DNA of 63,424 nucleotides from a virus (Duplodnaviria; Caudoviricetes): positions 1-63,424 of IMG/VR virus record IMGVR_UViG_3300028025_001987; one strand, 5' to 3'. The position numbers were made by a program, and so were the translations under genes. Of this stretch, positions 2,837 through 47,413 are shown in pieces (the stretch's first letter is position 1; every line of letters begins with the position of its first letter). Under the pieces are notes generated by a model. The model saw only the letters and a program-made list of their open reading frames with translations. It was not told the DNA's origin and did not search any database.

Positions 2837-3094
2837 ATGAAACCAATAGGCAAATACATTATCGTAAAAGACATCCAAGAGACAATAACAACTGAAAGCG
2901 GTTTGTTATTGTCAGGGGAGGATACCAATCAGTTACGCTACAAGCGTGCGATGGTGATTGAGTCCGGAACTGACGTAAGTGTTATTGAACAGGGCGATGA
3001 GTTGTACTACGACAAGGCACACAGCTTTACAATGCTGATTGATGATATGCAATATACCATTATTTCTGAGAGGGATGTGGTGGTTGTGGTGTAG
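2837..3094 (+). CDS. groES: Co-chaperonin GroES (Cpn10)
   Basis: MKPIGKYIIV, TTESGLLL mobile loop, GDELYY, ISERDVVVV. Confidence 0.9.
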   Translation: MKPIGKYIIVKDIQETITTESGLLLSGEDTNQLRYKRAMVIESGTDVSVIEQGDELYYDKAHSFTMLIDDMQYTIISERDVVVVV

Positions 3095-3530
3095 GGCTTC
3101 GGTACTTATTGGCTCTTTGATAAGCGTTCATACTAACAATCATATTGCGGTAGACCTTATCATTGTAGGATACATTCTTTAAAAATAGAGGGTTAGACGA
3201 TAGACTGACGGGGATTTCTTCCCCGTTTAGTTTTTTATAGATGTCTACCACCAAGTTATTAGCTTTATAGGATAGTTGATAGAGTGCTCTTCCGTTACTA
3301 CTTCTTGTTCTAAACTTTTCAATCCACCCATCTTTGCGTAAGCGTTCAAATCTTCCTACTTCCCAACTAACAAGTTCATTAAACTCGTCAAACTTCTCTT
3401 TTCCAAAGTAGCTTTCTGAGTAAAGGAACAGAATGGTGTCTAGGTCAGCTTGGCTAAGTCCGTGCTTTGCCTTCATATAATACCTGATGACCCTCCAAAA
3501 TTTTAGGTAATCATTTGGTGGTGATTTCAT
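3060..3530 (-). CDS. hypothetical protein, possible winged-helix DNA-binding protein
   Basis: 156-aa ORF; GLSQADLDTILFLY...FERLRKDGWIE...LYQLS pattern resembles a wHTH. Confidence 0.55.
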   Translation of the reverse strand: MKSPPNDYLKFWRVIRYYMKAKHGLSQADLDTILFLYSESYFGKEKFDEFNELVSWEVGRFERLRKDGWIEKFRTRSSNGRALYQLSYKANNLVVDIYKKLNGEEIPVSLSSNPLFLKNVSYNDKVYRNMIVSMNAYQRANKYRSPTPQPPHPSQK

Positions 3531-8115: not shown

Positions 8116-11100
8116 ATGTCAAAGATTAGTATATACGAAGTTGCTCCTGTACCTAAACTTGCCGACAAGCTAGTAGGTACAAGCGTAGGCGGAGAGCCTG
8201 AGGATATAACATATAACTTTACGTTAAGTGAGTTATTGAACTTATTCATCCCTAATATTCCGGGAAATACCTTACAAGGAGTATTGAATTTTGGTAATAC
8301 CGCAACTCAGAATATTAATCTTACAGGAATTATTACTACTACTACTTTAAATGTAGGTAGTACCGCTAATATATTAAACAGCAATTTAACGGGTCAAACT
8401 AAAATAACAGGCGGATTATATGATAGGTTAAACTCTATCGGTACTGCCGGGCAGGTATTAAGAAGTACAGGAACTCAAGTAGAGTGGTACAGCATTCCTA
8501 ATGTAATACCTACTTTACAACAAGTTCTTGCATCAGGCAATACTGCTGACATAAATGTTATTTTAACTTCTAATATTCAGGCTTTGACGGCTACTGCTAA
8601 TAATGTAGTATCTAATACAAGTTTGAGTGTTAATGGCACTTTAAAAGACAAAGACGCATCAGTTGGAACAGCAGGTCAATTACTATCTTCTACGGGAACA
8701 AAAGTTCAATGGGTAGATTTACCTGTTTATACGGCTACAAGTCCTTTAAGTATAAATAGTATTACTAGGAATATATCAATTCAACAAGCAAGCAGTACTC
8801 AAAATGGGTATTTATCAAGTGCAGATTGGATTACATTTGATGGAAAGCAGGGGGCAGTAAGTTTAACAACTGTTGGCTCAAGTGGACCTGCAACATTAGT
8901 TGGAAGTGTAATTAATGTTCCTAACTATACATTATCAGGTCTTGGCGGTGTACCATTAACAAGAACGCTTACAATTAATGGTGTTACTTATAATTTAGCA
9001 GCAGATAGGTCTTGGACGCTTGCTACAGGCGTTTCGTCTGTTACAGCAACAACTCCATTGTCTTCAACAGGAGGTGCTAATCCTAACATATCAATACAAC
9101 AATCAAGTAGTAGCTTAAGTGGATATCTTTCAAGTACTGATTGGTTGATGTTTAACGATAAGCAACCTGCAGGTAATTATATTACCTCATTAACAGGCGA
9201 AGCCACAGGTGCGGGTCCGGGAGCAGCATCAGTTACACTTAGCAATGCTGCTGTGATAGGTAAACTTTTAACAGGATTAAATATTACAGGAAGTGCAATA
9301 TCTTCTTCAGATAGTATTTTAACAGCTTTTGGTAAAGTACAGAATCAAATTAATGGATTAATTGGCGGTGTTCAATACCAAGGTGTATGGAATGCGGCTA
9401 CTAACACACCTGCTTTAGTAAGTAGTGTAGGTACGCAAGGATATTATTATATTGTAAGTGTAGCAGGTAATACCAACTTAAATGGTATTACTGATTGGCA
9501 AGTGGGCGATTGGGCAATATTTAATGGCTCTACGTGGAACAAAGTAGACAATACAGACTTAGTTACTTCTGTCAATGGACAGGTTGGAGCAGTAAGTCTT
9601 ACGACTGACAATATTCCGGAGGGAGCAACAAATTTATATTACTTAGACTCAAGAGCAAGAGCGGCACTTTCATTTGCTGCAGGTTCAGGAGCGTATAATA
9701 GTACAACAGGGGTAATTACAATACCAACTGACAATAATCAGATATTAAATGGAGCAGGATATATTACATTAGTTTCATTAAGTGCAACATCTCCGTTAAG
9801 TTATAACAATCTTACAGGAGCATTTTCTATTCAAGTAGCAAATACTACTCAGAATGGTTATTTAAGTAGTGCTGATTGGAACACGTTTAATGGTAAGCAA
9901 AATTACTTAAACGGTACGGGCTTAGTTAAGTCTGTTGCCGGTGTTATTTCATATATCACTGACAACTCAGCTAATTGGAATACAGCATACAATGATTCAA
10001 TTATAAGTGCTGCAGTTACGGGTACAGCAACAAAGACACTGACGCTTAACCAACAAGATGGTGGCACAATTACTGCAAGTTGGTCTGATATTGATACGGG
10101 ATTAACGTCAGTAGGTGTAAGTATGCCTGCTGCATTTAGTGTTGCAAACTCACCATTGACTTCAAATGGCACAATTGCCGTTACGGGAGCCGGTACAACA
10201 CTTCAGTATATTGATGGAACGGGAGCACTTAGAACATTCCCGGGATTAACAGGATACGTTCCTTATACAGGGGCAACTACCAATGTTGACCTTGGGGAGT
10301 TTGGCATTTCTGCAGGATACTTCCAAGCTGACTTGACACCAACAGGTGCATTGCAGGTTGGACGTATGCAGTGGAACTCTACCGATGGAACAATGGATTT
10401 AAGATTGATGGGTAACAATGTTACTCTTCAAATCGGACAGGAAATGGTTACAAGGGTAGTAAATAAATCAGGCATTGACTTACTTGAAGCAAATTATCAA
10501 GTTGTAAGAATAAGAAAAGTAGCAGAAGGTGGAGCACAAGGACAGCGTCTCGCTGTTGTCTTGGCTCAAGGTAATAATGAGAATAATAGTACTGAGGTAA
10601 TAGGTCTTGTTACTGAAACAATTAATAATAACCAAGAAGGATTTGTTACTTCTCTTGGTGAGGTTAAAAGTATTAACACAACCGGTTCTCTTCAAGGAGA
10701 AACTTGGGTAGATGGAGATATTCTTTATCTATCAAGCACAATTGCAGGTCAACTTACAAACGTAAGACCTGTTGCTCCTAATCACTCAGTAATTGTTGGA
10801 TATGTAGTATATGCTCACGCTAACAATGGTAAGATTTATATGGCAATTGATACGGGTTACGAACTCGGTGAATTGCACAACGTCTATGCTCCAAGTCCTA
10901 CAGCTAATCAAAGTATCTATTGGGATACTACTAATAGCAGATACCAATTAAATACTATTGGTGGCATATTAGGATACACTCCGGCAAATGCTGCAACAAC
11001 TATTTCAACTACTGCTCCATTACAAGGAGGAGGTGATTTGAGTGAAAACAGAACATTTAGCATTACACAATCAGGAGCGTCAACTAATGGATACCTTTCT

Positions 11101-14100
11101 TCTACAGATTGGAATACATTTAATGATAAGCAACCACTTATTACTGCAGGAACAACTTTGCAGTATTATAGAGGAGATAAAACTTTTCAAACATTAAATA
11201 CAACAGTTGTTCCTGAAGGAACAAATCTTTACTATTTAGATAGTAGAGCAAGAGCGGCTATTAGTTTAACAACTACAGGTTCGAGTGGTGCTGCTACATA
11301 TAATAGCACTACAGGTGTATTTAACATTCCTGATTACGGGTCTGCTTTAAGTGGATATGTACCAACGTCAAGGCAGTTAACCATTAATGGTACTGCATAC
11401 GACTTAAGTGCAGATAGAAGTTGGAGTGTGGGTACAGTTACATCAGTAGCTGCATTAACATTAGGAACAACAGGAACTGATTTAAGTTCAAGCGTGGCAA
11501 CAGGAACAACAACTCCTGTAATCACATTGAACGTACCTACAGCGAGTGCTGCTAATCGTGGTGCTTTAAGTGCTGCTGATTGGTCAACATTTAATACTAA
11601 GGTAGGTGGCGTAACAGCAAGTAGTCCATTAGCATCAAGCGGTGGTTCTACTCCAAACATTACAATTCAACAATCAAGTGGTAGTCAGGATGGATATTTA
11701 AGTTCAACTGATTGGACGACTTTTAATAGCAAACAAGTAGCCGGCAACTACATTACCTCATTAACGGGTGAGGCAACGGCTACAGGTCCGGGTGCTGCTG
11801 CAGTTACATTAAACAACGCATCAGTAACAGGAAAGGTTCTTACGGGAGTTAATATTACCGGAGGAACTGTTCAAGCGACTGATACAATGCTTACGGCATT
11901 TGGTAAGTTACAAAATCAAATCAATGGTTTGATTGGTAGTACCATTTATCAAGGCACTTGGAACGCAGCGACTAATACACCTGCTTTAGCGAGTGGTGTT
12001 GGCGTGCAAGGATATTACTACATTGTTTCAGTGGCAGGTACTACAAATCTTGATGGAATTACAGATTGGTTTGTGGGCGATTGGGCAATATTTAATGGAG
12101 GTGTATGGCAGCAGGTAGATAATACTGACGCTGTGGTAAGTGTGAACGGACAGACAGGTGCTGTTAGTTTAACTACTGACAATATTCCTGAAGGTGCGAC
12201 TAACCAATATTACTTAGATAGTAGAGCACGTGCGGCATTGTCATTTACGGCAGGTAGTGGTGCTTACAATAGCACTACAGGTATTATAACTATACCAACC
12301 AATACAAGTCAGCTAACCAATGGTGCTAACTTTATTACATTAGCTTCATTAAGCGGAACGGCTCCTATTGTGTATAGTAATATTACAGGTGCAATAAGCA
12401 TTACACAGTCAGGTACTGCAAGCGATGGATACCTTTCAAGTACTGATTGGAATACGTTTAATAATAAGCAAGCTACAATAACTTTAACAACTACGGGTAC
12501 GAGTGGTGCTGCTACTTTGGTAGGTGCTACTTTAAACATTCCTCAATATCAAAGTGCATTAACTAATCCGGTTACAGGTACAGGAAATGCTAACTATATA
12601 CCTAAATTTACAGGTACAAGTGCAATAGCAAATAGTGTTATATATGATAATAGTGGAAACATATTAATAGGAACCGGAAACATAACATCAGCACATAAAT
12701 TAACTGTTTATTCAGCAACGGCAACAGCACAAATTAGGGCAGCAGGTGCTGCTCCCGCAATTTTATTTACAAATACTGATACCAATACAAATAGCTATTC
12801 AGGTTATGTAGGTATAGCAACGGCAGTAAATAACTTTATGGCAGGCACTGCTGCAGGTGATATGGTGGTTCAAAACTATTCAGGTTATCCAATATTATTT
12901 GGAATTGGGAATATTATAAAGATGCGATTAGAAGCATCAGGACAGCTTGTATTGACCTCAACTATTAGTAATGGTACTTATACATATACACTTCCGGGTG
13001 CAACAGGCACTTTAGCCTTAACAAGTCAAATACCTTCTTTAACAGGTTATGTTCCATATACAGGAGCGACTACAAGTGTTGATTTAGGTGTTTATAATTT
13101 AACTTCTAATTTACAATATAATAAAGGTATAATAGTTAATAAATCAAGTACCACTGCTAATTCATTAAATATTGAAATTGCGGCATCTGCATCAATAAGT
13201 GGGGTTGGATATATTTCATTAACATCAATAGCAACTGATTCTTTAAGTGTATATTTTGGTGGCAGTACAAAAGTAGCTATATTATCAGGTTCTTCATTAA
13301 GTGCAAATAGAACTTACACTTTACCTGATACAAGTGGTACATTGGCTTTAGTTGGAGGTTCAGGCATTGGTACAGTTACATCAGTAGCAGCTTTAACAAT
13401 TGGAACAACAGGCACTGACTTGTCAAGTACAGTTGCTAATAGTACTACAACACCTGTAATTACATTAAATGTACCTACTGCATCGGCAGCTAATCGTGGT
13501 GCCTTAAGTGCCGCAGATTGGACTACGTTTAATAATAAGCAATCAGCTTTAACTAATCCGGTTACAGGGACAGGTACAGCGGGTTATGTTCCTAAATGGA
13601 CAAGTGGCAGTGCAATAGGAAATAGTATTTTACAAGATTCAGGTACAAGGCTTACAATGACAAGTGGGGATGGATTTCAAATATCAACAGGGTCTAGTGA
13701 TACAGTAGGTGCAGGTTCATTTATTGCTTTAACTAATGTTGGTGCAACAAATTGGCAATTACAACAAATGAATGCCGCTTATGGATTAGATTGGTGGACT
13801 TTAGCAAGTGGGGGTGGTTGGGAAAGAAGAATGGTTTTAACAAATCCCGGTAATTTAATTGTAGGAACTACTAATACATCAACAGGACATAGATTAACTG
13901 TTTATTCAGCAACTGAAACTGCACAATTTAGAGCAGCAGGTGCTGCCCCTGCAATTGCATTTACAAATACTGATACCAATACAAATAGCTATGTAGGTTA
14001 TTTGGGTATGGCAACAGCAGTAAATAATTTTATTACAGGAGCAGCAGCAGGTGACTTTGTTTTACATAACTATTCAGGTGGACCAATTTTATTTGGTATT

Positions 14101-16668
14101 AACAATAGTGAGAAAGTCCGAATAGCGTCATCAGGTCTTGCTACTTTTGTAGGAGCAATAAGTGCAGGAGGAAATATCACAGGTGCTTATATATTTGGAA
14201 GTTATTTCAATGCTTCTGCAGGTAACTCTGAAAACCCTACTATAGGTCAAATATGGACACAAAATACAACTGATAACTATTTAAGAAAATCAACACCTGC
14301 TCATTTTAGAAGTCAAGTTACAGATGGATATTATGTTCCTTCAACAAGTCAAACAACTTGGAATAGTTCTACAGTTATTGGTAATGTTGTAGGATTGTTA
14401 GCTTGGAAAAACTATGGTAATAATCACGTTATATTTGATGCATCTCAAAGCACTTCTCCAAGTGGAACAAGTGTAAATTCCACTAATCCTTCAAGTAATT
14501 GGGTTGCCTCCTACCCTACATTAATGGGATGGAATGGAGCAGGTACTTATGGTGTAAGAGTAGATAGTGCAAGAGTTTCTGATAATACAACAGGTAATGC
14601 TGCCACTGCAACAGCAGCACAGAACTCTTCATTTTTAACTCAAGCTAATGCTACATGGGGTGGAAGAATACAATTAGGGGGGGATGGGGGTGGCGGTACT
14701 GCTTTAATTGCAGTGGTTCAATCTACCAATGGTAATTTACATATGGATGCAGGAAATGGTAATTCTATGTATTTAAATTATTATAATAATGGTATTATAT
14801 ATTTAAATGGAGCTACTTATAATATTAGTTCTAATGGTTCACAATATAATGGTAATGCTGCTTCAGCTACAACAACAACAGGTAATGCAGGCTCTGTCAC
14901 TTACTTGCCTAATAGAACTGATGCAGCCGCTTATCCGGTCCTTTGGGGAGCTGCTTATACAAATACTATAGGAACGATAGCATACTCTTGTGCTGCAGTT
15001 ACTATTCAATCTAGTACAGGTACATTACAAGCTACAAATTTATATGCTACTTTATTGGCTACTTCAAGAACAAGTGGTGATTATAGACAAGCTACACTTG
15101 GAACACTTACAGGAGCAGGGTTGTATGTTACAAATGTTTCAGCAGGTAATGCTTATGGTTTATTAGTAGGTAGTAGTTATACTTATGGTGATGTATGGTT
15201 ACAAGCAGGCAGAGCAGATGGAAATGCTACTCCTTATAATATATCATTAAATGCGTCAGGTGGTACTGTAACTGTTGGAACAGTAACACCACAATCAGGT
15301 TATGACTTAACTGTTAGTGGGGCAGGATATTTTTCAACTAATGTAACAGCAACTCGTTCTTATGCAGCTATGGCACCAACAGTATCAAATGGAAATTGGG
15401 TTACATCTTTTCAGGCTACACCTGTTTCTGCAATGGCTTGGGGTGGTGATGTATCAGCAGGTGGTCCTTTAGGTACTTGGTGGTTCCAAGTAAATATGCG
15501 TCATAGTAATGCATCAAATTATTGGGGAACTCAATTAGCTTATGGATGGGAAGATAATGCAAATGAGATTTATCAACGTAATGTAACGGGTGGTAGTTAT
15601 AGCGGATGGGTTAGGTATTTGAATAGTAATAATTACAATTTATTTGCTTTACCATTAACAGGTGGTAATTTAAGTGGTACACTTACTTTCTCACAACCTG
15701 TGGGTCTTGGTTTTGCAAATGGACAATACGTTAAAGATAATGGGAGTGGTGGTTTTGTTATATATGGTGCTGCATTAATACAACTTAATTCTAATGTACA
15801 AACCTCTAATTATATGCTGATTGGAGGTAATTACACAAATAATGCCTATAGTTCAGTAAGTTCTACTAGATTAATGTTTGGTGGTGGTGATGCTGACGCT
15901 CAAGGTAATTACTACATTGGTACAAATCTGAATAATTATGGTGGCAATTTTACTAAACTTGATTTAGCTTGGCACACAGGTATCCGTATGGGTGCACAAC
16001 CGTCATATGGTGGTATTCGTATGTTTAATACTGAAGATTTAAGTACACAAATATTTTCTGTAGGAGAAACTGATAATAATGTAAGAGTACCTTATAAATT
16101 AGCAGTAGGAACACAAACTACAACAAATCAAAATTTAACAGTATATAGTGCTACAGGAGCAGGTCAAGTTAGAATTGGAGGAGCAGCACCTACTATTTAT
16201 TTTACTAATGTACTAACCGACCCTGCTACTTATGTAGGATTATTAGGATTAGCAACATCTAGCAATAACTTTTTTACAGGAACGGCAGCAGGTGATTTTG
16301 TAATGTATAATTCATCTAGCGGATATAACTTATTTGTTGTAAATTTTAGCGGTGGTGTATATTTGACAAGTGGTGCTACATCTTGGACTGCTAACTCGGA
16401 TATTAGACTTAAAAACATAAATAGTCATATTGAGAACGCAGTTGAAAAATTATCTACCTTGCAGACCATAAACTTCTCTTATAAAGATGACAAGTTTAAA
16501 AAACAAAATCTTGGTTTAATAGCACAAGAGGTAGAAAAGATATTTCCTGAACTAATTGATAAAAATAATGATGGAATGTTAGGAGTAAGATATACAGAAT
16601 TGGTGCCTGTATTAATCAAAGCAATTCAAGAACTTAAATTAGAAATAGAAACTTTAAAAAATAAATAA
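8116..16668 (+). CDS. Giant tail fibre/adhesin with C-terminal peptidase S74 intramolecular chaperone
   Basis: Thr/Gly/Ser-rich repeats; C-terminal SDIRLKNI...GLIAQEVEKIFPEL...VRYTELVPVLIKAIQEL. Confidence 0.9.
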   Translation: MSKISIYEVAPVPKLADKLVGTSVGGEPEDITYNFTLSELLNLFIPNIPGNTLQGVLNFGNTATQNINLTGIITTTTLNVGSTANILNSNLTGQTKITGGLYDRLNSIGTAGQVLRSTGTQVEWYSIPNVIPTLQQVLASGNTADINVILTSNIQALTATANNVVSNTSLSVNGTLKDKDASVGTAGQLLSSTGTKVQWVDLPVYTATSPLSINSITRNISIQQASSTQNGYLSSADWITFDGKQGAVSLTTVGSSGPATLVGSVINVPNYTLSGLGGVPLTRTLTINGVTYNLAADRSWTLATGVSSVTATTPLSSTGGANPNISIQQSSSSLSGYLSSTDWLMFNDKQPAGNYITSLTGEATGAGPGAASVTLSNAAVIGKLLTGLNITGSAISSSDSILTAFGKVQNQINGLIGGVQYQGVWNAATNTPALVSSVGTQGYYYIVSVAGNTNLNGITDWQVGDWAIFNGSTWNKVDNTDLVTSVNGQVGAVSLTTDNIPEGATNLYYLDSRARAALSFAAGSGAYNSTTGVITIPTDNNQILNGAGYITLVSLSATSPLSYNNLTGAFSIQVANTTQNGYLSSADWNTFNGKQNYLNGTGLVKSVAGVISYITDNSANWNTAYNDSIISAAVTGTATKTLTLNQQDGGTITASWSDIDTGLTSVGVSMPAAFSVANSPLTSNGTIAVTGAGTTLQYIDGTGALRTFPGLTGYVPYTGATTNVDLGEFGISAGYFQADLTPTGALQVGRMQWNSTDGTMDLRLMGNNVTLQIGQEMVTRVVNKSGIDLLEANYQVVRIRKVAEGGAQGQRLAVVLAQGNNENNSTEVIGLVTETINNNQEGFVTSLGEVKSINTTGSLQGETWVDGDILYLSSTIAGQLTNVRPVAPNHSVIVGYVVYAHANNGKIYMAIDTGYELGELHNVYAPSPTANQSIYWDTTNSRYQLNTIGGILGYTPANAATTISTTAPLQGGGDLSENRTFSITQSGASTNGYLSSTDWNTFNDKQPLITAGTTLQYYRGDKTFQTLNTTVVPEGTNLYYLDSRARAAISLTTTGSSGAATYNSTTGVFNIPDYGSALSGYVPTSRQLTINGTAYDLSADRSWSVGTVTSVAALTLGTTGTDLSSSVATGTTTPVITLNVPTASAANRGALSAADWSTFNTKVGGVTASSPLASSGGSTPNITIQQSSGSQDGYLSSTDWTTFNSKQVAGNYITSLTGEATATGPGAAAVTLNNASVTGKVLTGVNITGGTVQATDTMLTAFGKLQNQINGLIGSTIYQGTWNAATNTPALASGVGVQGYYYIVSVAGTTNLDGITDWFVGDWAIFNGGVWQQVDNTDAVVSVNGQTGAVSLTTDNIPEGATNQYYLDSRARAALSFTAGSGAYNSTTGIITIPTNTSQLTNGANFITLASLSGTAPIVYSNITGAISITQSGTASDGYLSSTDWNTFNNKQATITLTTTGTSGAATLVGATLNIPQYQSALTNPVTGTGNANYIPKFTGTSAIANSVIYDNSGNILIGTGNITSAHKLTVYSATATAQIRAAGAAPAILFTNTDTNTNSYSGYVGIATAVNNFMAGTAAGDMVVQNYSGYPILFGIGNIIKMRLEASGQLVLTSTISNGTYTYTLPGATGTLALTSQIPSLTGYVPYTGATTSVDLGVYNLTSNLQYNKGIIVNKSSTTANSLNIEIAASASISGVGYISLTSIATDSLSVYFGGSTKVAILSGSSLSANRTYTLPDTSGTLALVGGSGIGTVTSVAALTIGTTGTDLSSTVANSTTTPVITLNVPTASAANRGALSAADWTTFNNKQSALTNPVTGTGTAGYVPKWTSGSAIGNSILQDSGTRLTMTSGDGFQISTGSSDTVGAGSFIALTNVGATNWQLQQMNAAYGLDWWTLASGGGWERRMVLTNPGNLIVGTTNTSTGHRLTVYSATETAQFRAAGAAPAIAFTNTDTNTNSYVGYLGMATAVNNFITGAAAGDFVLHNYSGGPILFGINNSEKVRIASSGLATFVGAISAGGNITGAYIFGSYFNASAGNSENPTIGQIWTQNTTDNYLRKSTPAHFRSQVTDGYYVPSTSQTTWNSSTVIGNVVGLLAWKNYGNNHVIFDASQSTSPSGTSVNSTNPSSNWVASYPTLMGWNGAGTYGVRVDSARVSDNTTGNAATATAAQNSSFLTQANATWGGRIQLGGDGGGGTALIAVVQSTNGNLHMDAGNGNSMYLNYYNNGIIYLNGATYNISSNGSQYNGNAASATTTTGNAGSVTYLPNRTDAAAYPVLWGAAYTNTIGTIAYSCAAVTIQSSTGTLQATNLYATLLATSRTSGDYRQATLGTLTGAGLYVTNVSAGNAYGLLVGSSYTYGDVWLQAGRADGNATPYNISLNASGGTVTVGTVTPQSGYDLTVSGAGYFSTNVTATRSYAAMAPTVSNGNWVTSFQATPVSAMAWGGDVSAGGPLGTWWFQVNMRHSNASNYWGTQLAYGWEDNANEIYQRNVTGGSYSGWVRYLNSNNYNLFALPLTGGNLSGTLTFSQPVGLGFANGQYVKDNGSGGFVIYGAALIQLNSNVQTSNYMLIGGNYTNNAYSSVSSTRLMFGGGDADAQGNYYIGTNLNNYGGNFTKLDLAWHTGIRMGAQPSYGGIRMFNTEDLSTQIFSVGETDNNVRVPYKLAVGTQTTTNQNLTVYSATGAGQVRIGGAAPTIYFTNVLTDPATYVGLLGLATSSNNFFTGTAAGDFVMYNSSSGYNLFVVNFSGGVYLTSGATSWTANSDIRLKNINSHIENAVEKLSTLQTINFSYKDDKFKKQNLGLIAQEVEKIFPELIDKNNDGMLGVRYTELVPVLIKAIQELKLEIETLKNK

Positions 16669-38503: not shown

Positions 38504-41500
38504 ATGCCGGATTTAAAACAAGCGTTAAAAGATTTTGTAGCTACTTCTAATAGTGGTGTATATAAAGACGAGACCACTTTATTGTCTAAGTTCCCTGAGT
38601 TAAAGAGTTATGATATTAATGCATTAAAAGATTTTGTAGCTACCTCTAATAGCGGTGTATATACAAGTGAAGATGAGTTATTTTCTAAATTCCCTGAATT
38701 TGGAATTTCAAAAGAAGCCGAAGCATTAAAAAAAAAAGAGTCAATTACTACGGTATCACCTTTGGAAGATACTTTTTTGGCTTCGCAAAAACAACTTCCT
38801 AGCTTTGAGGTTAGTCCATTAAGAGCAGAGGCTCCTGTTAAAAAAGAAAAATTACTTAAAAATTTAGAAGCATTTGAACAGGCTACTGATAGAAATGCTT
38901 ATTTAGATAATATTGGTACAAGAGCATTATCAGGTGTTACTTCTTTCGATAAAATGGTTGCATCTATTCCTGAATCAATTATTAACGTAGCATCATTGCC
39001 TCAAAATGCATTAGCTTGGGCTACGGGTTGGGATATTGCGGCTAATGCTGACACATTTAAGAAAACATTAGGTATAAGCAATCCTATCTTAGATAAATTA
39101 AACGAAGAAGAAAAAAGACTTAGTGCTAAAACTGAAAAGTTTAATCAAGAAAGATATGAGAGTACAGGTATTGTAGATAATATACAAAAAGGAAATTATC
39201 AAGATGCATTTGAATTATTAGGAAGTAATATTATAGAATCTGCTCCTGTAAGTATAGCAATGATGGTTGGAGGAGCAACACTTGCTCCTACCGAATTGGC
39301 AGCAATTAGTACTGCTGCTTTTCTTGAGCAGAATAGAGAGCAGCTAGGAGAAGAAAATCCTGATATGCCTGAAGTAGAAAAGACAGTAAAAGCATTGGGA
39401 ATGGCTGCTGCAGAAACGGTATTTAGTGCTATTGGCACAGGTACAATTGGTCAAGTATATAAGGATATTATAAAAAAAGAAGGCGTAGAAGTAGGAAAGA
39501 ATATATTTAGAGATGGTTTAGTTGCTACATACAAAAGTGCATTAACTAAGTATGGTGTCCCAATAGGTCTTTTAGGAGAAGGTATAGAGGAAGCAGCTAC
39601 CCAAATTACTCAGAATGTACTTAGTGATAAATCCGCATTCCAAGGTGTTGCGGATGCATTTGTAACCGGAGCCGGAAGTGGCGTTGTATTTACTGCACCA
39701 ATTAGTGCAATAAAAGCTAGAGATAAAATAAAAGATTTTGTAGAAACTTCTCAATCTAAAAATGCAATAAAAACTGTATTAAAAGATAATGAGTTAACTC
39801 AAATTTATAATGTTCCTAAAGATAGCCCTATTACTTCTGAGCAAATAGAGATTGCTAATACCAATAAATCAAGAAATATATTGGTAAAAAATTTAGATAA
39901 AAAGGTAAAAAATGGCGAAATATCAGAAGATGACGCTAAACAATCAATATATGTATTTGATAAAATTCAACAAGTTTCAAATTCAGTAAAAGATTTAAAC
40001 GTAACTAATTCTGAAAAGGCAGAGATTGCTACTTTATTAAGCAAAAGAAATCAATTAACTACTGACATACAAAATAAAGACGATGTATTAGTAGTTAAAG
40101 AAAAACAAGAAATAGCAGATATTAATAAAAAAATTCAGGATATTATATTGGTTTCAAAACCACAACAAGTGGAAGAGGTTGCTGCTGAAACAAATTTAGG
40201 TCTTGAAAAAGAATTAAGAGAGGAATTTAATTATGATTATTATGAAGAAAACCTTAATAGCGAATTTGAGTGGCAAAGAGATTTTGCAAAAGAATTTTTA
40301 AATGACCCTAAAGCCGCTTTTGAAAAGAGTATTAAACTTTTTAAAGATGCACTACAACGAGAACCAAATAACCAATCTTACAAGGACTCATTAGATTATA
40401 ATGAAGAACGATTAAATAAGTGGAACGAAATAAATAATAAATATAAAACCGAACAAGATGCCATTCAAAAACAAATCACAGATGAAGGCTTGCTACGCAG
40501 CCAAGGACCCCAATTGGGATTGCAAAAAATGGGCGAAGGAAACCAAGGACTTGAAGTCGCTGCCACAGGGACCCAAGAAGTCGCTCCTACGCAACCGCAA
40601 CAAGAAATAGTAAAAGCAAAATTTGAAGGACCAATAACTCAAGAGTCATTAGAAACAATCCCTGAAAAAGATATTTCAGATGTGACTGAACAAATAAATA
40701 ATGGTCAAGCAAAATTAAATATAGACGCATTCCCTGCTACAGAATTAGGTACAGATAATAAAATCACAAATAACCAAAATGTATATTTATTACATTCGCA
40801 AGGTAAAGAGATTGGGATTTTAACTGTTAACAATGAAAAACTTGGTAACAGAGATGAAAGTTCAATAGCAGGTGTTGTTTTGCATCCTGACGTACAAGGA
40901 AAAGGAATCGGTAAAGAAATGTACCGATATGTAAATAATGATTTAATTGAAAATGGGAAACAGCCATTAAAATCAGATTACGATATAACTCCTGATGCAA
41001 TTAATGTATGGAAGAGTTTGGTTAAATCAGGAGAAGCAACTCAAATTGGAGTCTCTGAAAAAAATAATGTTCCTTTATTTCAAATGAACAAACCTTCTGT
41101 TGAGTTGGTGTCTTTAAAGACACAAGCACCTAAGTTTGTTAGAGACATCTCTGCTCTTATCACTCCGGCTACAGTGCGTGGATTCAGTCCACTTACTGAA
41201 AGGATTAAGAAGTTGTCGTTGAACTATGACAAACTTGTTAAGCAATACGCTAAAAAGAAAGACCCTAAAGTTCTTGCTAAAATAAAAACTGCGGAGGCTC
41301 AAATATTAAATGATGCCAAGCAGGAGATTATTGATGCAGTAGCAAATATTGATGGTGTATCTGTTCAGTTTAAAGATACCAAGCGTGGCTTATGGGATAA
41401 GAAATTTGAACCATCGTTCAATATGACCTTGTCAGTTAGTCCACAGGCGGATACTAAAAAGGTAAGCGACTTACTATTTGACTTTGCAGAGAAGTATTCT

Positions 41501-44500
41501 CAAGACGCATTTATATTAGAAACTAATTCTGACCTTGAAGATGATGTTATAAATAAGGGCAGAGAAATGCCTCTTACAGAATTTGATGAAAATAATTTAA
41601 TGAATTATCCGCAAATTATTTATACATTTGCTGAACCAATAACTGACGAGCAAGTAGCAGACCTATCTGTAGCGTTAGAAAGTGAAGGTATTGATGCATT
41701 TAATATCAATAATAATGAACTTCAGGTATCAGTAATTAAATTTCTTTCACAAGACGAACAAAACAATTTAACCAATGATGAACAATATCAAGAACGCACA
41801 AGAGACTTCGACTCAAAAACAATCGCAATCGCAAAAGCCACGTCTGACGTACTCGGAAGCGATGGCAAGGGTGCAAGCAGCATTCGCATCAAAAAATCTT
41901 CTTACCAAGGAGCAACCAATGAAGGAAGTGCAGACCAAACAAGACAATTCAATAGGAGTGACGTTTTTAAAGCGTTCAAAGAGTCAACCACAAAAGTAGA
42001 AACACTTGCAGTTGAACTTGCTGACTTACGCCAAAAAGAAATAGACCTACAAAAAGAAGGAAAAAAATTATCTACTGAAGACCAAACTCGATTTAACGAG
42101 TTAGTTAAAAAAGTACAGCCTGTAGTACAGCGTACATTTGAAGCAAATAAAAAACTTTATGAAGATGCTAAGACTGAGGTAGAAGGTATCGCACAAGATG
42201 CCATCTCTCAAGTTGACGCATCCATATCTCCATTCCCAATTAAACGTGCCGAGCGTGCATCTGTTAAAGCTATCAGATGGTATAATGCATTCACCGAAAA
42301 ACTTGGTGATGGTTCACGTGTAAATATCGTAGTAGATACTGACGCTAATGCTGATAAAGTATTTAAAATTATTGACGAGAAGTATCCGGGGGATACAGAA
42401 GTAAGAAGAATCACGGAGACTACAGAATTGGGTTACCCAAAAAGACTTATTGAAATTCGTACATCTAATGGTACGCTTGCAGAAATTCAAGTGATTACCA
42501 ATGAAGCCTATTTGGCTAAGGATGGCATCAAAGGATTTACCGGAGATGAAAAGCAAAAAGCTACAGCTAAACAAAAGTTAGATGAAGTACGTGCTCGTCT
42601 TGGATGGAATATACCTGATGGACTTGGTCATTATTTCTACGAGATTCAAAGAGATACCAATGTAGATGATACTTTAAGAGATGAGGCTGCAAGATTAAGC
42701 GACCTATATTATGATGCATTTACTAATCCAAAGTCTACACTTACTGAGTCTTTTATGAATGATGTAAATACATTTAAAAATAATGTAGATGCTGCTGATA
42801 AATCACAATGGGATGTAGGAAACAATGGTAAGGCTCCACAATCTTTAATAGATTATAAACCTGTTCAGGCTGAAGCTGCACTTATGATAGAAGAAGAGCA
42901 GTTTATTCCTATGAAAGCATCTGAGGTTAAGAATGATGCGTTTACCAAAGACAATGCAATAGACTATATTGAAGATGAAAAAGATACTGATAGCGGAAGA
43001 ACTGTAACATATATCTCATCACTTACCGTTGAAGCACGTAATATAGATGGTGAACCTATTGGAACAATAACAAAACTTACCGATGAAGATAAAATATTCT
43101 CATTTACTGCAACAGATATTGATGGTAATGAGATTAATTTTGATGGATTTGAGACATTAGGAGAAGTAAAACAAGCACTTGCTGACAAGAACAATAAGAT
43201 TCAGAAGAAAGAATTTGATAAAGAGCAAAAGAAAAGGGCTAAAGAAAAAGCTAAAGTTGAGGCTAAAAAAGCTAAAGCTAAAGCAAAAGCTAAGCCTACA
43301 GTAGAAGAGCAAGTAACGGGTGCATTAGATGACTTACTTGCATTAGACCCTAACGATAAGACTACATTAAAGAAAATCTCAAATAGCCTTGACCAAGTGA
43401 TTAAGGATATTGATAAGTTTGAGAAAGAAAATCTTGGTGTAAATATAGCATTGCCTGTAATGAAGACCATCCTTAAAGCAATCAAGGCATTGGTTGACGC
43501 AGGTGTTGTATTACAAGATGCAATTAAAAGAGTTGCTAAAGACAACAATGTAAATAGCCGTGATGTAATTGATGGTATCAATGCTATTAGTCAAATTGCT
43601 CCTATTCAATCGCAGTATGATGCATTAATGGCAAAGGCTGATGATTTAATTGCACGTCAAAAATTAAGAAATATAGCTGATGCTAAAATAGTATCTAACT
43701 TAGATACGTTTATTAGAAATTCAGATATTTACAAAGAGAGTAATGATGCACAGAAGAAAATAATGGAGCGTGAGGCTAGACTTAAAATGGGAGTTGGTGC
43801 TAAGCGTGCGGTGTCAATTGGACGTGTGCTTGGTGCATTAAAAGATATTACCAATATATCGAGAGAAGAAAAGATGCTTGTCATCAAGCAAATTAGAGAC
43901 TTATCAAGAGATGCAGCTAAGGAATTGGCTAAGGATATTAGAGAGATGGCATCAAAAGGAAAGATTACATCAATCCAAGCAGCTAATATTGTATCAAGAT
44001 TTGGCAAGGTAAATATGCTTAATGAGATTTCAGTGTCAAACTTTGTTGACTATATGGCTAAGGTATTTGCAAACGCAGAGTATGCTGATAAGATTGATGT
44101 GGCTAAGAGTAAGTTGAAGATGGCTAAGAAAAACATTGTTACCAAGATTGGTATTGCTGATGGGTTGGTTGGAAAATTAAATCAATTATTTTCTATGAAT
44201 CCAACACTTATACCTAATGAATATCTTGGTCGTTACTTAGAATTAGTTGATATGTTTGGTGCAAGACAAGCAGTGCTTACACTTGACGAGAAGTCTGCAG
44301 TGACTAAAGATGTTCAAGCAATTCTTGATGAGATTGACAACGAGCAGTCAAAAGCTGACGAGTTAGCTGATAGATTTAATGCTTCTGAGAATAAAGTATT
44401 TAAAGATGACGAATTAGATTACGCAGCATCAATTAAAAAAATGCTTGACGGGAAAGAGATTGACGAGAAGGAAGCAGAGACTATGCGTAAATATAAAGAG

Positions 44501-47413
44501 GACATTGCTCCTCAAGTTGAAGAGACTGAACTTACTGAAGATGAATTAGCGGCAGAAAGAAAAGAATTAACAGATGCAGTAAAAAAATCGACCATTGATG
44601 GCTCCGGTCTTTCTACTAAATATGAAAGAGATACGGTTAAAGAATTAACTAGACTTATTAGAACTGACGCAGTAGATAGTTTAACTAATACTGAATTAAA
44701 AAATTTACTTAAAGTTATTGACAACATTAACAACAACTACTTACCTCACTACGGAGAGATAATGCTAGAGAAGTTAGATGGACTTAATACTGACAAGGTT
44801 TTAACTAAAGCTGTTGAGCAGAGCAAGATGTATAAGTTCTCTGAATTATATTCAAAAGCAAAAGCTGCTGTTGCGATGCAAGGAAGAACAGGTGTTTTAG
44901 AAATGGTTAGAAGAAACCCTTTATTTTATATTGACCAATTATTTGGGAATTTTAAAACAAAAGAAATATTTAATTCGTTATTTAATGAACCTGCAAAAGC
45001 CGTTGCTGTATTTAAAACTCAATTAAATAGAGTTCAAAACATTTTAGAAAAGGCTGAAGAAAAGGTGGCTAAGTCATTTGGACTTGAACCTAATGCAGTA
45101 ACTATGTCTAAATTTAAGATGATGACTTATATGGTTCAACTTGAATTTGAATCTAACAAAGGGAATAAAGAAGTTAATCCCGCATCTGATTATTTAAAAG
45201 CTACTATAAAGCATATTGATGCAGGAAAGTCTCGATTTGGAGAACGTGATGCTGATATGTTACAACAAATACTTAAAGATTTTGCTCCTGATGGCAACAT
45301 TGATAACGAAAAACTTTACAACTCATTTAATCAAGCTGAGAAAGATGCCATTAAAGACATTCGTGGTATAAACGAATCACTAAGAGAGAAGGCTGAATTT
45401 ACTGCAGCGATTATTCGTGGCGATAGGATTGACCCATTGAATAACTATGTGCACTTAAATGTATTACACGAGTATCAGCCAAACGATTTAACATCGGGCA
45501 GTGCGTTTGTAACTGAGTACAATAATGCAATGAGACCATCTACTAAAGCAAAGTCTTTGATAGCGAGAACAGGTAAGGTATCCCCATTAAACTTTGACAT
45601 ATTTGCAAGTGCTCAGCGTGGTGCCAAATTTGTCTTGATGGATTTCAACTTAACAAAACCAATACGTACATCTCGTAAAACAATCAGCGGCACTATTGCT
45701 AATTTAGAAAGTAAAGGAAGAATACCTAAAGAACAAAGACAAATAATAAATGCTATTAATGCTGCGTTTGAAGAGTCTATTGAAACGTTATTGACAAATA
45801 CATTCACTCAAGATTCAGCATTAGATATAGCTATTGATTACATAAGCAAACAAGGATACCGTGCAGTACTTGCGGGTACAAATAGGTTTACATCTGAGTT
45901 AACATCAAACATAGGATTTGCTGTAATTAGTGACCCTAAGGCTCTCATTACAGGTATAAAATACAGAGGTGTTATTATGTCTTCTGATGCTCCTATGATA
46001 ATGGAGAATTTAAAAAGCAAGCAAACTAATAGAGTTTTTCCTACAGATACATTATCAGGAAGATTAGTTGATACATCAATATTAAGTCAAGCAAGTGGTA
46101 TTAAAGGTGCTGTATCAAAAAATCCTGTTAAAAATAAAATTCAACAAATTTGGAACAGGTCAGGAAAAAAATATGTTAATGCAATTGAACTTCAAGCTGA
46201 TGCTTTGATTTCAACTCCTGATAAACTTACAATGAGACCTATGTGGTTTGGCTCCTTTGCAAATCAATTTGAAAATATCACAGGCAATGAAGTAGACTTT
46301 AAAAAAATTGCAGAGAATGATGAGACATATATGGAAGCCAATAAGGAGGCTCTTGATAAAGCTACTCAACTTGCAGACGAAAGGTCTGTAATGGTGGGAG
46401 CCACAGACAATCCATTTATGGGTATTTTAAAAGGAAACATAAAGCCTGACCAAAAACTTGCGTTAAGAGCATTTAATAACTTCAATAACTTTATGACAAA
46501 GTTCTTGATATTTGAATATGTTACAGCACGTACAGCTATTATGGCAGCTATTGGTAATGGGTCATTAACTAAAAAACAAGGAGGTGCAGTTCTTGGAGCA
46601 GTTGCTACACGTATGGTAGTATATGGATTAATTCTTCAAATGATGGGCACAGGTCTTATGGGATTATTCTTTGATGATGATGAGCCTGAAACAGAAAAGT
46701 CGTTTATGCAAAAACTTGGTCAAGCATTCGCTTCTGCATTTAGTTCGTTATTAATTGGAAGAGATTTTGGAAATGCTGTTAAGACTGTATTAAACTATGG
46801 TATAGAAGAAGCAAATGAAAAGTACCTTGACTTCTTAAGAGAGGGAGAATACGACCCGTATAAAGATGGCATTGCTTACACATTAATACCAAGAGATGAT
46901 AGTAAACAAACAGACTTAGGTAAGCTACTTATGAATATGGGAGGTGCTTATACACCTGCATTAAATACGGCTGCATTTATTGTTAAAAAGGCAACAGAAA
47001 AACCAAAAGTAAAAGAGGATGCTATTGCAAGAAGAGAGAAAGAGATTAAGATAAGGATTCCTCTTGAGGTATTGGGTAACGCAGGTCTTATTCCTTTATA
47101 CAAAGATATCCGTAAGGCTGTAATGAAAGATATGTATAAAGACCTTGAGAATGCTGATAAGACTAAGGGAGATAAAAAGAAAGCTGAGGCTGAAAAACTT
47201 CAAGGATTTAAGAACCAAGAAGATATGAAGCGTTACGATTACGAACTTTGGTATAGAACATTCGGACCTGACGCTGTTGACTTTGATGCAAAGCAAGCAG
47301 AAAAATTGATTAAGAAAACAAAGGATAGCTTGGAGAGAGCAATGAAAGATGATATGTACGACTACACTCCAAAACCTAAAAATAGTAAAGAAGGACTAGA
47401 GAAACTATATTAA
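38504..47413 (+). CDS. giant multidomain (polyvalent) ejection protein with GNAT and RelA/SpoT-like domains
   Basis: 2969 aa; EG.EEAATQ Gly/Ala segment; VLHPDVQGKGIG GNAT motif A; K..ER...K...D..R...GY...NG..AEIQ...H..YE..R nucleotidyltransferase pattern. Confidence 0.75.
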   Translation: MPDLKQALKDFVATSNSGVYKDETTLLSKFPELKSYDINALKDFVATSNSGVYTSEDELFSKFPEFGISKEAEALKKKESITTVSPLEDTFLASQKQLPSFEVSPLRAEAPVKKEKLLKNLEAFEQATDRNAYLDNIGTRALSGVTSFDKMVASIPESIINVASLPQNALAWATGWDIAANADTFKKTLGISNPILDKLNEEEKRLSAKTEKFNQERYESTGIVDNIQKGNYQDAFELLGSNIIESAPVSIAMMVGGATLAPTELAAISTAAFLEQNREQLGEENPDMPEVEKTVKALGMAAAETVFSAIGTGTIGQVYKDIIKKEGVEVGKNIFRDGLVATYKSALTKYGVPIGLLGEGIEEAATQITQNVLSDKSAFQGVADAFVTGAGSGVVFTAPISAIKARDKIKDFVETSQSKNAIKTVLKDNELTQIYNVPKDSPITSEQIEIANTNKSRNILVKNLDKKVKNGEISEDDAKQSIYVFDKIQQVSNSVKDLNVTNSEKAEIATLLSKRNQLTTDIQNKDDVLVVKEKQEIADINKKIQDIILVSKPQQVEEVAAETNLGLEKELREEFNYDYYEENLNSEFEWQRDFAKEFLNDPKAAFEKSIKLFKDALQREPNNQSYKDSLDYNEERLNKWNEINNKYKTEQDAIQKQITDEGLLRSQGPQLGLQKMGEGNQGLEVAATGTQEVAPTQPQQEIVKAKFEGPITQESLETIPEKDISDVTEQINNGQAKLNIDAFPATELGTDNKITNNQNVYLLHSQGKEIGILTVNNEKLGNRDESSIAGVVLHPDVQGKGIGKEMYRYVNNDLIENGKQPLKSDYDITPDAINVWKSLVKSGEATQIGVSEKNNVPLFQMNKPSVELVSLKTQAPKFVRDISALITPATVRGFSPLTERIKKLSLNYDKLVKQYAKKKDPKVLAKIKTAEAQILNDAKQEIIDAVANIDGVSVQFKDTKRGLWDKKFEPSFNMTLSVSPQADTKKVSDLLFDFAEKYSQDAFILETNSDLEDDVINKGREMPLTEFDENNLMNYPQIIYTFAEPITDEQVADLSVALESEGIDAFNINNNELQVSVIKFLSQDEQNNLTNDEQYQERTRDFDSKTIAIAKATSDVLGSDGKGASSIRIKKSSYQGATNEGSADQTRQFNRSDVFKAFKESTTKVETLAVELADLRQKEIDLQKEGKKLSTEDQTRFNELVKKVQPVVQRTFEANKKLYEDAKTEVEGIAQDAISQVDASISPFPIKRAERASVKAIRWYNAFTEKLGDGSRVNIVVDTDANADKVFKIIDEKYPGDTEVRRITETTELGYPKRLIEIRTSNGTLAEIQVITNEAYLAKDGIKGFTGDEKQKATAKQKLDEVRARLGWNIPDGLGHYFYEIQRDTNVDDTLRDEAARLSDLYYDAFTNPKSTLTESFMNDVNTFKNNVDAADKSQWDVGNNGKAPQSLIDYKPVQAEAALMIEEEQFIPMKASEVKNDAFTKDNAIDYIEDEKDTDSGRTVTYISSLTVEARNIDGEPIGTITKLTDEDKIFSFTATDIDGNEINFDGFETLGEVKQALADKNNKIQKKEFDKEQKKRAKEKAKVEAKKAKAKAKAKPTVEEQVTGALDDLLALDPNDKTTLKKISNSLDQVIKDIDKFEKENLGVNIALPVMKTILKAIKALVDAGVVLQDAIKRVAKDNNVNSRDVIDGINAISQIAPIQSQYDALMAKADDLIARQKLRNIADAKIVSNLDTFIRNSDIYKESNDAQKKIMEREARLKMGVGAKRAVSIGRVLGALKDITNISREEKMLVIKQIRDLSRDAAKELAKDIREMASKGKITSIQAANIVSRFGKVNMLNEISVSNFVDYMAKVFANAEYADKIDVAKSKLKMAKKNIVTKIGIADGLVGKLNQLFSMNPTLIPNEYLGRYLELVDMFGARQAVLTLDEKSAVTKDVQAILDEIDNEQSKADELADRFNASENKVFKDDELDYAASIKKMLDGKEIDEKEAETMRKYKEDIAPQVEETELTEDELAAERKELTDAVKKSTIDGSGLSTKYERDTVKELTRLIRTDAVDSLTNTELKNLLKVIDNINNNYLPHYGEIMLEKLDGLNTDKVLTKAVEQSKMYKFSELYSKAKAAVAMQGRTGVLEMVRRNPLFYIDQLFGNFKTKEIFNSLFNEPAKAVAVFKTQLNRVQNILEKAEEKVAKSFGLEPNAVTMSKFKMMTYMVQLEFESNKGNKEVNPASDYLKATIKHIDAGKSRFGERDADMLQQILKDFAPDGNIDNEKLYNSFNQAEKDAIKDIRGINESLREKAEFTAAIIRGDRIDPLNNYVHLNVLHEYQPNDLTSGSAFVTEYNNAMRPSTKAKSLIARTGKVSPLNFDIFASAQRGAKFVLMDFNLTKPIRTSRKTISGTIANLESKGRIPKEQRQIINAINAAFEESIETLLTNTFTQDSALDIAIDYISKQGYRAVLAGTNRFTSELTSNIGFAVISDPKALITGIKYRGVIMSSDAPMIMENLKSKQTNRVFPTDTLSGRLVDTSILSQASGIKGAVSKNPVKNKIQQIWNRSGKKYVNAIELQADALISTPDKLTMRPMWFGSFANQFENITGNEVDFKKIAENDETYMEANKEALDKATQLADERSVMVGATDNPFMGILKGNIKPDQKLALRAFNNFNNFMTKFLIFEYVTARTAIMAAIGNGSLTKKQGGAVLGAVATRMVVYGLILQMMGTGLMGLFFDDDEPETEKSFMQKLGQAFASAFSSLLIGRDFGNAVKTVLNYGIEEANEKYLDFLREGEYDPYKDGIAYTLIPRDDSKQTDLGKLLMNMGGAYTPALNTAAFIVKKATEKPKVKEDAIARREKEIKIRIPLEVLGNAGLIPLYKDIRKAVMKDMYKDLENADKTKGDKKKAEAEKLQGFKNQEDMKRYDYELWYRTFGPDAVDFDAKQAEKLIKKTKDSLERAMKDDMYDYTPKPKNSKEGLEKLY
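38521..38700 (+). repeat. tandem N-terminal repeat in the giant protein
   Basis: ALKDFVATSNSGVY....L.SKFPE twice. Confidence 0.85.
40458..40610 (+). CDS. nested +1-frame small protein (MPFK..Q...W type)
   Basis: MPFKNKSQMKACYAAKDPNWDCKKWAKETKDLKSLPQGPKKSLLRNRNKK; A-rich leader; local GC rise. Confidence 0.55.
   Translation: MPFKNKSQMKACYAAKDPNWDCKKWAKETKDLKSLPQGPKKSLLRNRNKK

Follow-up and report, generated by a model that had tools for sequence, protein, structure and literature searches.

The viral DNA analysed here, IMG/VR record IMGVR_UViG_3300028025_001987, referred to over its full 63,424 nucleotides (nt) as the window, in all likelihood contains a real protein-coding gene at 40458..40610 (+ strand) that shares its DNA with a giant virion-protein gene, with both reading frames maintained. 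The giant open reading frame (ORF) spans 38504..47413 and encloses the small one, which consists of 50 codons and a TAG stop; the offset between the two is 1954 nt, or 3 x 651 + 1, placing the small ORF in the +1 frame. An earlier note on this DNA had singled out a 50-residue ORF at this position, and the peptide it quoted matches exactly, followed by TAG. The features the note saw around it are also borne out. The leader (40438..40457, + strand) is rich in A, which occupies positions -13, -12, -11, -10, -6, -5, -3 and -2. The GC content in 100-nt windows at 40450-40649 is 0.46, 0.55 and 0.45, against 0.21-0.32 over the 450 nt before the GC-rich patch and 0.26-0.32 over the 250 nt after it. 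The giant frame reads through the small gene at 40457..40609 (+ strand; giant-protein residues 652-702) as DAIQKQITDEGLLRSQGPQLGLQKMGEGNQGLEVAATGTQEVAPTQPQQE, a low-complexity linker rich in Q/E/G/T whose sequence is dictated by the peptide frame. The peptide itself is ~5.8 kDa and strongly basic, with a K/R-rich tail, and the window record has only one copy of its gene. The note's larger claim, that this is a true overlapping gene, is supported by homologues, by a +1 frame that stays open in them, and by substitutions that track the +1 frame.

How widely is the small gene conserved? A sensitive blastn search with window positions 39800-41300 (1501 nt) against 50,697 phage records aligned only ~40439-40564, at 76-77% identity, in 69 records (68 Elemovirus and one uncultured podovirus). 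This island of DNA-level conservation to distant podophages (40439..40564, no strand assigned) coincides with the GC spike. In a tblastn search, the peptide matched 71 phage records with 58% identity over 48 amino acids (aa). In both annotated records that were examined, the match is an ORF of 42-43 codons that starts with ATG, is intact and lies at +1 within a giant gene; the two GenBank annotations list only the giant gene there, as the earlier note expected of standard annotation. A peptide scan of IMG/VR yielded 54 loci, making 56 with the two from GenBank; the ORF is intact, ATG-started and nested at +1 in a long ORF in 55 of the 56. The exception is L042, a 356-kb contig in which the same sequence is the in-frame N-terminus of a 455-aa protein and the other frames are closed. 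Since peptide-found loci share their ascertainment, relatives were also sampled independently of the peptide, using a conserved C-terminal region of 785 residues in the giant protein. Of the 59 loci obtained, the 52 whose giant ORF starts inside the locus are counted. The small ORF lies inside the giant ORF in 40 of the 52, always at +1, and in three more (L151, L159, L173) the giant gene is split and the small ORF is at +1 in a separate upstream long ORF, for a total of 43/52 nested; one further locus (L183) has a free-standing copy. A second IMG/VR scan with a family member found 80 loci: 68 nested at +1 in giant or ~400-aa ORFs (the latter are the scaffold-position genes described below), 11 small and non-nested, some of them cut by contig ends, and one fused. 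The giant frame is open throughout in nested loci. Homologues therefore exist in number, and the +1 frame is open in 55/56 and 43/52 orthologous loci, not interrupted by the frequent stops that would speak against a gene.

The pattern of substitution shows that purifying selection acts on the amino-acid sequence read in the small frame. The blocks compared come from close relatives alignable without indels, with exact duplicates dropped and L039-L056, which have indels, left out. Across 31 unique 142-nt blocks, column entropy at peptide codon positions 1, 2 and 3 is 0.34, 0.20 and 0.74, and the least variable columns are the third positions of the giant frame. The 31 nt upstream of the ATG are variable at all phases (entropy 0.9-1.4). 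For all pairs of 30 unique blocks (Nei-Gojobori), the proportions of synonymous and non-synonymous differences (pS and pN) are 0.561 and 0.112 in the peptide frame, and 0.130 and 0.206 in the giant frame; the corresponding ratios of non-synonymous to synonymous rates (dN/dS) are 0.117 and 1.69. Because the pairs are not independent, a parsimony count of changes was also made for 40 unique blocks, on a tree that itself comes from the same 112 nt. There were 217, 83 and 46 events at peptide positions 3, 1 and 2, respectively; 197 were synonymous and 149 non-synonymous in the peptide frame, compared with 48 and 297 in the giant frame. In eight relatives, giant-frame synonymous divergence is 0.00-0.20 in the 40-codon block at the patch, versus 0.4-1.0 elsewhere. 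Scaffold-hosted copies (8 loci) point in the same direction, with a pN/pS of 0.37 in the peptide frame versus 0.85. The check for dual-frame conservation suggested by the earlier note thus comes out in favor of the +1 frame. The same data show what is asked of the giant frame at the patch: selection there mostly keeps it open, and it encodes a flexible linker that joins exchangeable modules. Its Ala GCC, three Gln CAA and Gly GGA codons are each frozen in 30/30 blocks, and where it swaps K for E or I for V, the peptide is unchanged.

Could the conserved entity instead belong to the giant protein? Specifically, the main-frame motif DA[IV]Q[KE]Q..[DN]E..L….GLQE.GEG could be a maturation-cleavage or docking site at module borders, meaning that the +1 ORF is a by-product. 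The motif is present in all nested loci, at the module junction, and there is a second “DAVQKQ” in the locus elemoA (L001), 132 residues upstream. However, a conserved protein motif is hard to reconcile with main-frame changes that are mostly non-synonymous, with K/E and I/V swaps that are silent at +1, and with synonymous sites frozen at codons that are rare in this phage (GCC 7%, CCC 4%). Moreover, the peptide occurs without the main-frame motif, since the other frame is closed in free or fused copies. Hence, this explanation is very improbable. It is just as improbable that the island is a recently spread cassette whose similarity reflects horizontal transfer between co-occurring phages. 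The flanks are mosaic, and many co-occurring variants share the patch in single metagenomes, as transfer would predict. Recent spread does not fit the strong divergence at +1 synonymous sites (pS 0.56) with amino acids kept (pN 0.11), nor does it fit a family that extends to giant-virus contigs and comprises hundreds of clusters at 50% identity.

Codon choice in the peptide is tuned to keep the giant frame open. Among 20,000 synonymous re-codings of the peptide drawn from phage codon usage, none left the giant frame open. The expected GC content of the patch under phage codon usage is 0.344 ± 0.020, and the observed value is 0.493. Dual coding accounts for the GC spike because it requires stops to be avoided in the other frame: in a peptide rich in Lys, Asp and Glu, T-ending codons before codons that start with AA, AG or GA create giant-frame stops. 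For example, Phe3 is TTC in 30/30 nested copies, although the phage uses TTT for 78% of Phe codons; TTT followed by AAA produces TAA in the other frame, and TTT is found in 5/10 free-standing or fused copies.

Sequence context suggests how the small gene would be translated. The ATG is invariant in 48/48 unique giant-hosted and 17/17 unique scaffold-hosted leaders, and there is no second ATG in the 20 nt before the start. No Shine-Dalgarno sequence is present in the leader. Among the 48 giant-hosted leaders, A is found at -13, -12, -11, -6 and -3 in 42, 41, 40, 37 and 41, respectively, and each of these five positions is A in 14-15 of the 17 scaffold-hosted leaders. The context score of the nested start is 4.84, in the top 3.4% of the giant ORF's 208 internal ATGs. 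This is within the range of the phage's own 42 gene starts (median 7.2), which are likewise without a Shine-Dalgarno signal and A-rich at -13 to -11 and at -5. The leader is predicted to be unpaired by RNA folding. In Flavobacterium johnsoniae, A at -3, -6, -12 and -13 promotes initiation, according to the available text of PMC6847099, and the A positions of the nested leader include all four of these determinants. The small protein would thus likely be made by independent internal initiation at the invariant ATG, using the A-rich context without Shine-Dalgarno sequence that is usual in Bacteroidia and at the phage's own gene starts.

Phage structural genes often give rise to frameshift products. 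It is worth considering whether the +1 frame is coding but has no start of its own, with ribosomes on the giant ORF shifting by +1 and terminating at 40610 to yield a truncated giant protein with a basic tail. The same-strand +1 overlap has the right geometry for this, but other features do not fit: conservation begins at the invariant ATG; +1 stops lie 2-9 codons upstream in most loci; 136 of 150 family representatives start Met-Pro-Phe at residue 1; and the upstream leader is variable, with no conserved slippery motif. Frameshifting is accordingly a most unlikely source of the conserved peptide, and initiation at the ATG is preferred.

Several points weigh against a conserved, independently translated gene. 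First, 8 of the 52 peptide-independent loci have a homologous giant gene with no copy of the small ORF, and a search of the eight whole records with the A1 family profile found no copy, including in five records that are 90-100% complete, although the first-look filter of that search may miss 50-residue targets. These absences suggest that the gene is common but accessory, and either dispensable or replaceable. Second, K/E/Q codons in the main frame could account for part of the A-richness upstream. Third, contigs from two RNA libraries cover the patch, but such contigs cannot show transcription, strand or start, and no Ribo-seq or proteome data for these phages were found in the literature searched. 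Fourth, both substitution counts carry some dependence, either between the pairs or between the tree and the sites it was built from. A related idea, that relatives lacking a nested copy hold one elsewhere in the genome, was not supported, given the lack of A1 matches in the five 90-100% complete records.

The island is also a junction between modules of the giant gene. L004 has just the downstream modules in common with the window, whereas in L037 and L038 the upstream modules are shared and so are downstream ones, at greater distance; most other relatives share neither. In metagenome assemblies there is a 10-20 fold spike in depth, and many contigs end or diverge, at 40445-40600. In elemoA, where the nested gene is at 3001..3129, the island's initial 19 nt (GATGCC…GCAAG) are found at both 2604-2622 and 3000-3018, 396 nt apart, on either side of a 132-residue insert in the giant protein. 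The upstream repeat starts a 10-codon +1 stump, MPFKSKKLMK, and looks like a recombination scar at the island edge. It is very likely that the island behaves as a recombination joint, an added property beside coding.

Does this make the island a nucleic-acid element rather than a gene? It could be kept as an RNA structure, or as a DNA “linker” that serves as a recombination joint. The exchange of flanking modules between relatives exactly at the island, the direct repeat in elemoA, and the contig breaks and depth spike are all in line with such a role. For an RNA or DNA element, however, three-base periodicity in the +1 phase would be unexpected, as would conservation of amino acids with saturated +1 synonymous sites (pS 0.56). 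The folding energy equals that of shuffled sequences (z 0.05 and 0.13), and Rfam has no gathering-level match, the best (E 0.45) falling outside the patch. The recombination joint is likely a side effect and not an alternative to coding, and there is little chance that a nucleic-acid element by itself explains the conservation.

What kind of protein does the small gene encode? The window peptide starts with MPFKNKSQ, continues with ACYA and WDCKKW, and has every signature position of its family: M1, P2, F3, K6, Q8, A11, C12, Y13, A14, W20, D21, C22, W25, T29 and K33-x-L-P36. The family signature is MPF-x-[SN]-K-x-Q..AC[FYW]A…W[DN]C, in which W[DN]C continues as -x-x-[WFY]. The A1 profile, made from 39 peptides, was scored against 1.84 billion cluster representatives and matches 655 at E<=1e-3 and 35 at E<=1e-10. 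Among the best 150 of these 655, the 136 that start with MPF were mentioned above; frequencies at conserved positions are 0.97 for M, 0.97 for P, 0.99 for F, 0.99 for S/N and 0.99 for Q. Both cysteines are present in 146 of the 150, neither in 4, and one alone in 0. This both-or-none pattern suggests that the cysteines contact each other, perhaps as a disulfide or through a shared ligand. Lengths are <=100 aa for 84 of the 150, 101-300 aa for 44, and longer for 22. The window peptide is 36-92% identical to the other 70 aligned members.

The module is nearly always at residue 1 of small or multidomain viral proteins. Of 54 longer members that were scanned, 11 have a Pfam match downstream of the module. 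The partners are YkuD, Phage_lysozyme2, DUF5661 (three proteins, one below the cut-off), DUF6321, DUF3140, PBCV_basic_adap, 2'-5' RNA ligase-like, DUF4269 and LpxK-like domains. One IMG/VR member is fused to an InPase domain, a domain described for polyvalent proteins in the available text of PMC5512222. The family also reaches giant viruses: the contig of L128 is labelled GVMAG, and the top BFVD matches are Klosneuvirus-type proteins. The earlier note likened the peptide to widespread small phage proteins that are normally standalone. The widespread family exists, but close relatives are mostly nested (68/80), and in the wider family the sequence is mostly an N-terminal module or a small protein.

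The peptide is new to family databases. Scans of Pfam, PHROGs and NCBIfam assigned it to no family (at E<=1 for Pfam and PHROGs); seven relatives match phrog_1375 weakly (E 0.0012-0.091), and the window peptide does not match it at E<=1. The source names of family members are all “hypothetical protein”, and neighbors in the ESM Atlas are small hypothetical clusters. A word-based search of 5.8 billion protein clusters found one called copy of near-equal length; such a search is insensitive here because nested ORFs are rarely called. AlphaFold2, with a 71-row alignment, predicts a helix at residues 6-15, a loop, a helix at 22-28 and a disordered K/R tail, with a mean predicted local distance difference test (pLDDT) score of 77.7.

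Some individual family members have features of their own. In L042 (3001-4365), the module at the start of the 455-aa protein is followed by ~20 KRRKSSK repeats and, by eye, a kinase-like region. In P0004 (62 aa, from a 14.9-kb contig), the reading frame of the peptide carries on into EEEVTVIQEITEEEV, similar to the acidic stretch that the main frame encodes immediately past the island in scaffold-hosted loci; either the module is naturally fused in frame to the scaffold-position protein here, or the assembly has an indel. Two elements fall outside Pfam: a second Cys motif, short and basic (…GYCTPMTKSTCTG/P.RR…), closes P0007, P0008 and P0014, and these three share with P0019, P0021 and P0085 an internal block, …R.RQN.Y…STLGQIDP.PV.NFQPNPY.LYA….

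Which of the two overlapping genes came first? The arrangement in other genomes is informative. The ~400-aa host gene sits between the portal and major capsid genes. In L050, whose portal and major capsid protein (MCP) are 51% and 47% identical to those of the window, the 411-aa host corresponds to the 361-aa scaffold-position protein of the window (35% identity, E 7e-53) with ~80 aa added at the N-terminus, and the small gene lies within that extension. There are also free-standing variants without the cysteines: L120 is between the portal and major head genes, L124 is after terminase and portal (a tblastn search with it against GenBank phages gave no match at E<=1e-3), and L134 is between terminase and portal. 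In L183 (12622-12792) and L181 (2671-2841, with the giant ORF cut at the locus edge), a free-standing non-Cys variant begins 6 nt after the stop codon of the giant gene. The giant C-terminus of these two is 47-48% identical, and Phe is encoded by TTT, closing the other frame. Together, these arrangements make it somewhat more probable than not that the small head-module gene is the older of the two and that neighboring ORFs grew or fused across it. The earlier note called the small gene “overprinted”; with free-standing copies by the portal or after the giant gene, it is instead the giant ORF that probably reads through an older small frame. The scaffold-position gene and the giant gene may each have engulfed it once, using the sole alternative frame able to stay open. 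Indeed, the third frame is closed, with about 8-29 codons open in most nested loci, which would explain why both host genes read the small gene in the same relative frame.

The giant gene itself (38504..47413, + strand; 2969 aa) is the last of a + strand structural operon that includes the large terminase, the portal (811 aa), the 361-aa scaffold-position protein, the MCP and further virion proteins. Its product may be a polyvalent virion protein, a type that PMC5512222 describes as very large and built from several unrelated effector-type domains, judging by its size, its place at the end of the structural operon, and modules that are mosaic between relatives. The C-terminal third (residues 2111-2895) matches phrog_32588 in a PHROGs scan (E 7e-67), and the homologue in cultured Flavobacterium podophages of the genus Elemovirus is annotated only as “structural protein”, a more general label than the “ejection protein” of the earlier note. 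One stretch (42155-42721, residues 1218-1406) is similar to Tas1, a (p)ppApp synthetase effector of RelA/SpoT type (PDB 6ox6, E 2e-4), and another (40772-40960, residues 757-819) is GNAT-like but below Pfam cut-offs (E 5e-4). These two similarities would fit a polyvalent, host-manipulating virion protein. No MuF or other polyvalent hallmark domain was found in the giant protein. At its N-terminus (38522-38665, residues 7-54) is a tandem duplicate, with ALKDFVATSNSGVY occurring twice, 34 residues apart; the giant protein of L002 has an unrelated N-terminus, likewise with a two-fold repeat. The window has a second giant ORF at 8116-16668 (2850 aa), the last ~100 residues of which match the tail-fibre/receptor-binding families phrog_1210 and phrog_33119.

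What might the small protein do? A tentative suggestion is that it is a late-expressed adaptor that acts in the head interior or associates with DNA. Fused at an N-terminus, it would bring enzymes into the virion as cargo; on its own, it would serve as a small, basic internal protein. This suggestion draws on the strictly N-terminal position of the module on enzymes of the types that are packaged in virions or act on cell walls, on the location of the gene in the head-assembly module, and on the very basic character of the protein. The presence of relatives in giant-virus contigs argues for a generic ligand such as DNA over a phage portal. Structure-based and profile-based searches offer no anchor for this functional assignment: Foldseek with the AlphaFold2 model gave 0 matches in PDB at E<=10 and 18 weak matches in BFVD, none at E<=0.001 and mostly to uncharacterised viral proteins, and the A2 profile gave 0 matches to PDB sequences at E<=1. 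Alternatively, the small protein could regulate the giant protein or assembly, or bind nucleic acids inside the cell.

A broader scenario, “reverse overprinting”, is more speculative still. An old, mobile head-module gene of 45-50 codons would have been swallowed repeatedly by growing neighbor ORFs (scaffold-position and giant) that read through it as a disordered linker. The island would double as a homologous joint for the exchange of effector modules between co-infecting phages, and the peptide would be a pan-viral N-terminal adaptor, found in tailed phages and giant viruses, that tethers cargo enzymes to packaged DNA for entry into the virion and the next host. If this is true, the dual-coding island is the most conserved DNA in fast-shuffling giant genes.

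Why does this matter? First, a gene has been missed on a large scale: the nested gene is present in all 68 matching records of cultured Elemovirus phages and in well over a hundred phage contigs of IMG/VR. Second, it is a clean example of dual coding, in which the selected frame can be read from the phase of substitutions and the GC spike is explained quantitatively. Third, the extension of a large ORF over a pre-existing small gene is a seldom-discussed route to the birth of an overlap, here tied to the assembly of giant mosaic virion proteins. Fourth, the peptide defines an undescribed N-terminal module of viral proteins, fused to partners of the sort usual in injected effector proteins, for which a cultured phage-host pair (Elemovirus and Flavobacterium) exists.

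How does the module compare with known protein families? DUF3008 (PF11450) comprises short proteins that start with MP-x-KSKAQ; to our knowledge, they are without the Cys pair and the W-D-C motif. Membership in DUF3008 was considered and rejected: neither the peptide nor its relatives match it in Pfam at E<=1, and the only lead is one ESM Atlas cluster, 18% of which is DUF3008. The PBCV-specific basic adaptor domain (PF08789) is similar in being a small, basic module at the ends of diverse viral enzymes. Indeed, PF08789 and the MPF module are found together in one protein, P0073, and the C-terminal tails of P0055, P0083 and P0090 look similar by eye. Unlike the MPF module, PF08789 has a different motif and is C-terminal or internal, and the window peptide gave no match to it. 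Capsid-targeting or portal-binding N-terminal modules are known from phages, including the T4 internal-protein targeting sequence and the SPP1 gp7/MuF domain of polyvalent proteins. Like these, the MPF module is N-terminal on varied cargo (cell-wall hydrolases, InPase, and 2H-type enzymes typical of polyvalent proteins), and MPF genes are in the head-assembly module, beside portal and scaffold. The MPF module has no homology to the T4 or SPP1 modules and is also found in giant-virus contigs, which are without such portals. The packaging of polyvalent proteins is discussed in the available text of PMC5512222. Within the MPF family, most representatives are called genes, encoding free small proteins or the N-termini of 100-900-aa proteins, whereas the window copy, like those closely related to it, is embedded in another gene and read in a different frame.

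Same-strand overlapping, or overprinted, genes are classical in phages, with phiX174 and the MS2 lysis gene L as examples; thus, overlapping phage genes are already known as a kind. What is new is this widespread, unannotated gene, its undescribed module family, its recurrence in two host genes, and the evidence for large ORFs overrunning a small gene. No description of the nested gene or its motif was found in the literature searched. As in the classical cases, two frames use one stretch of DNA, synonymous change is suppressed in the host frame, and annotation misses the second gene. Unlike the classical cases, the small frame is the more widespread and more constrained of the two, and the large ORF is probably the newcomer. 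Also unlike classical overprinting, the same small gene is engulfed in two different host genes and is free-standing in relatives.

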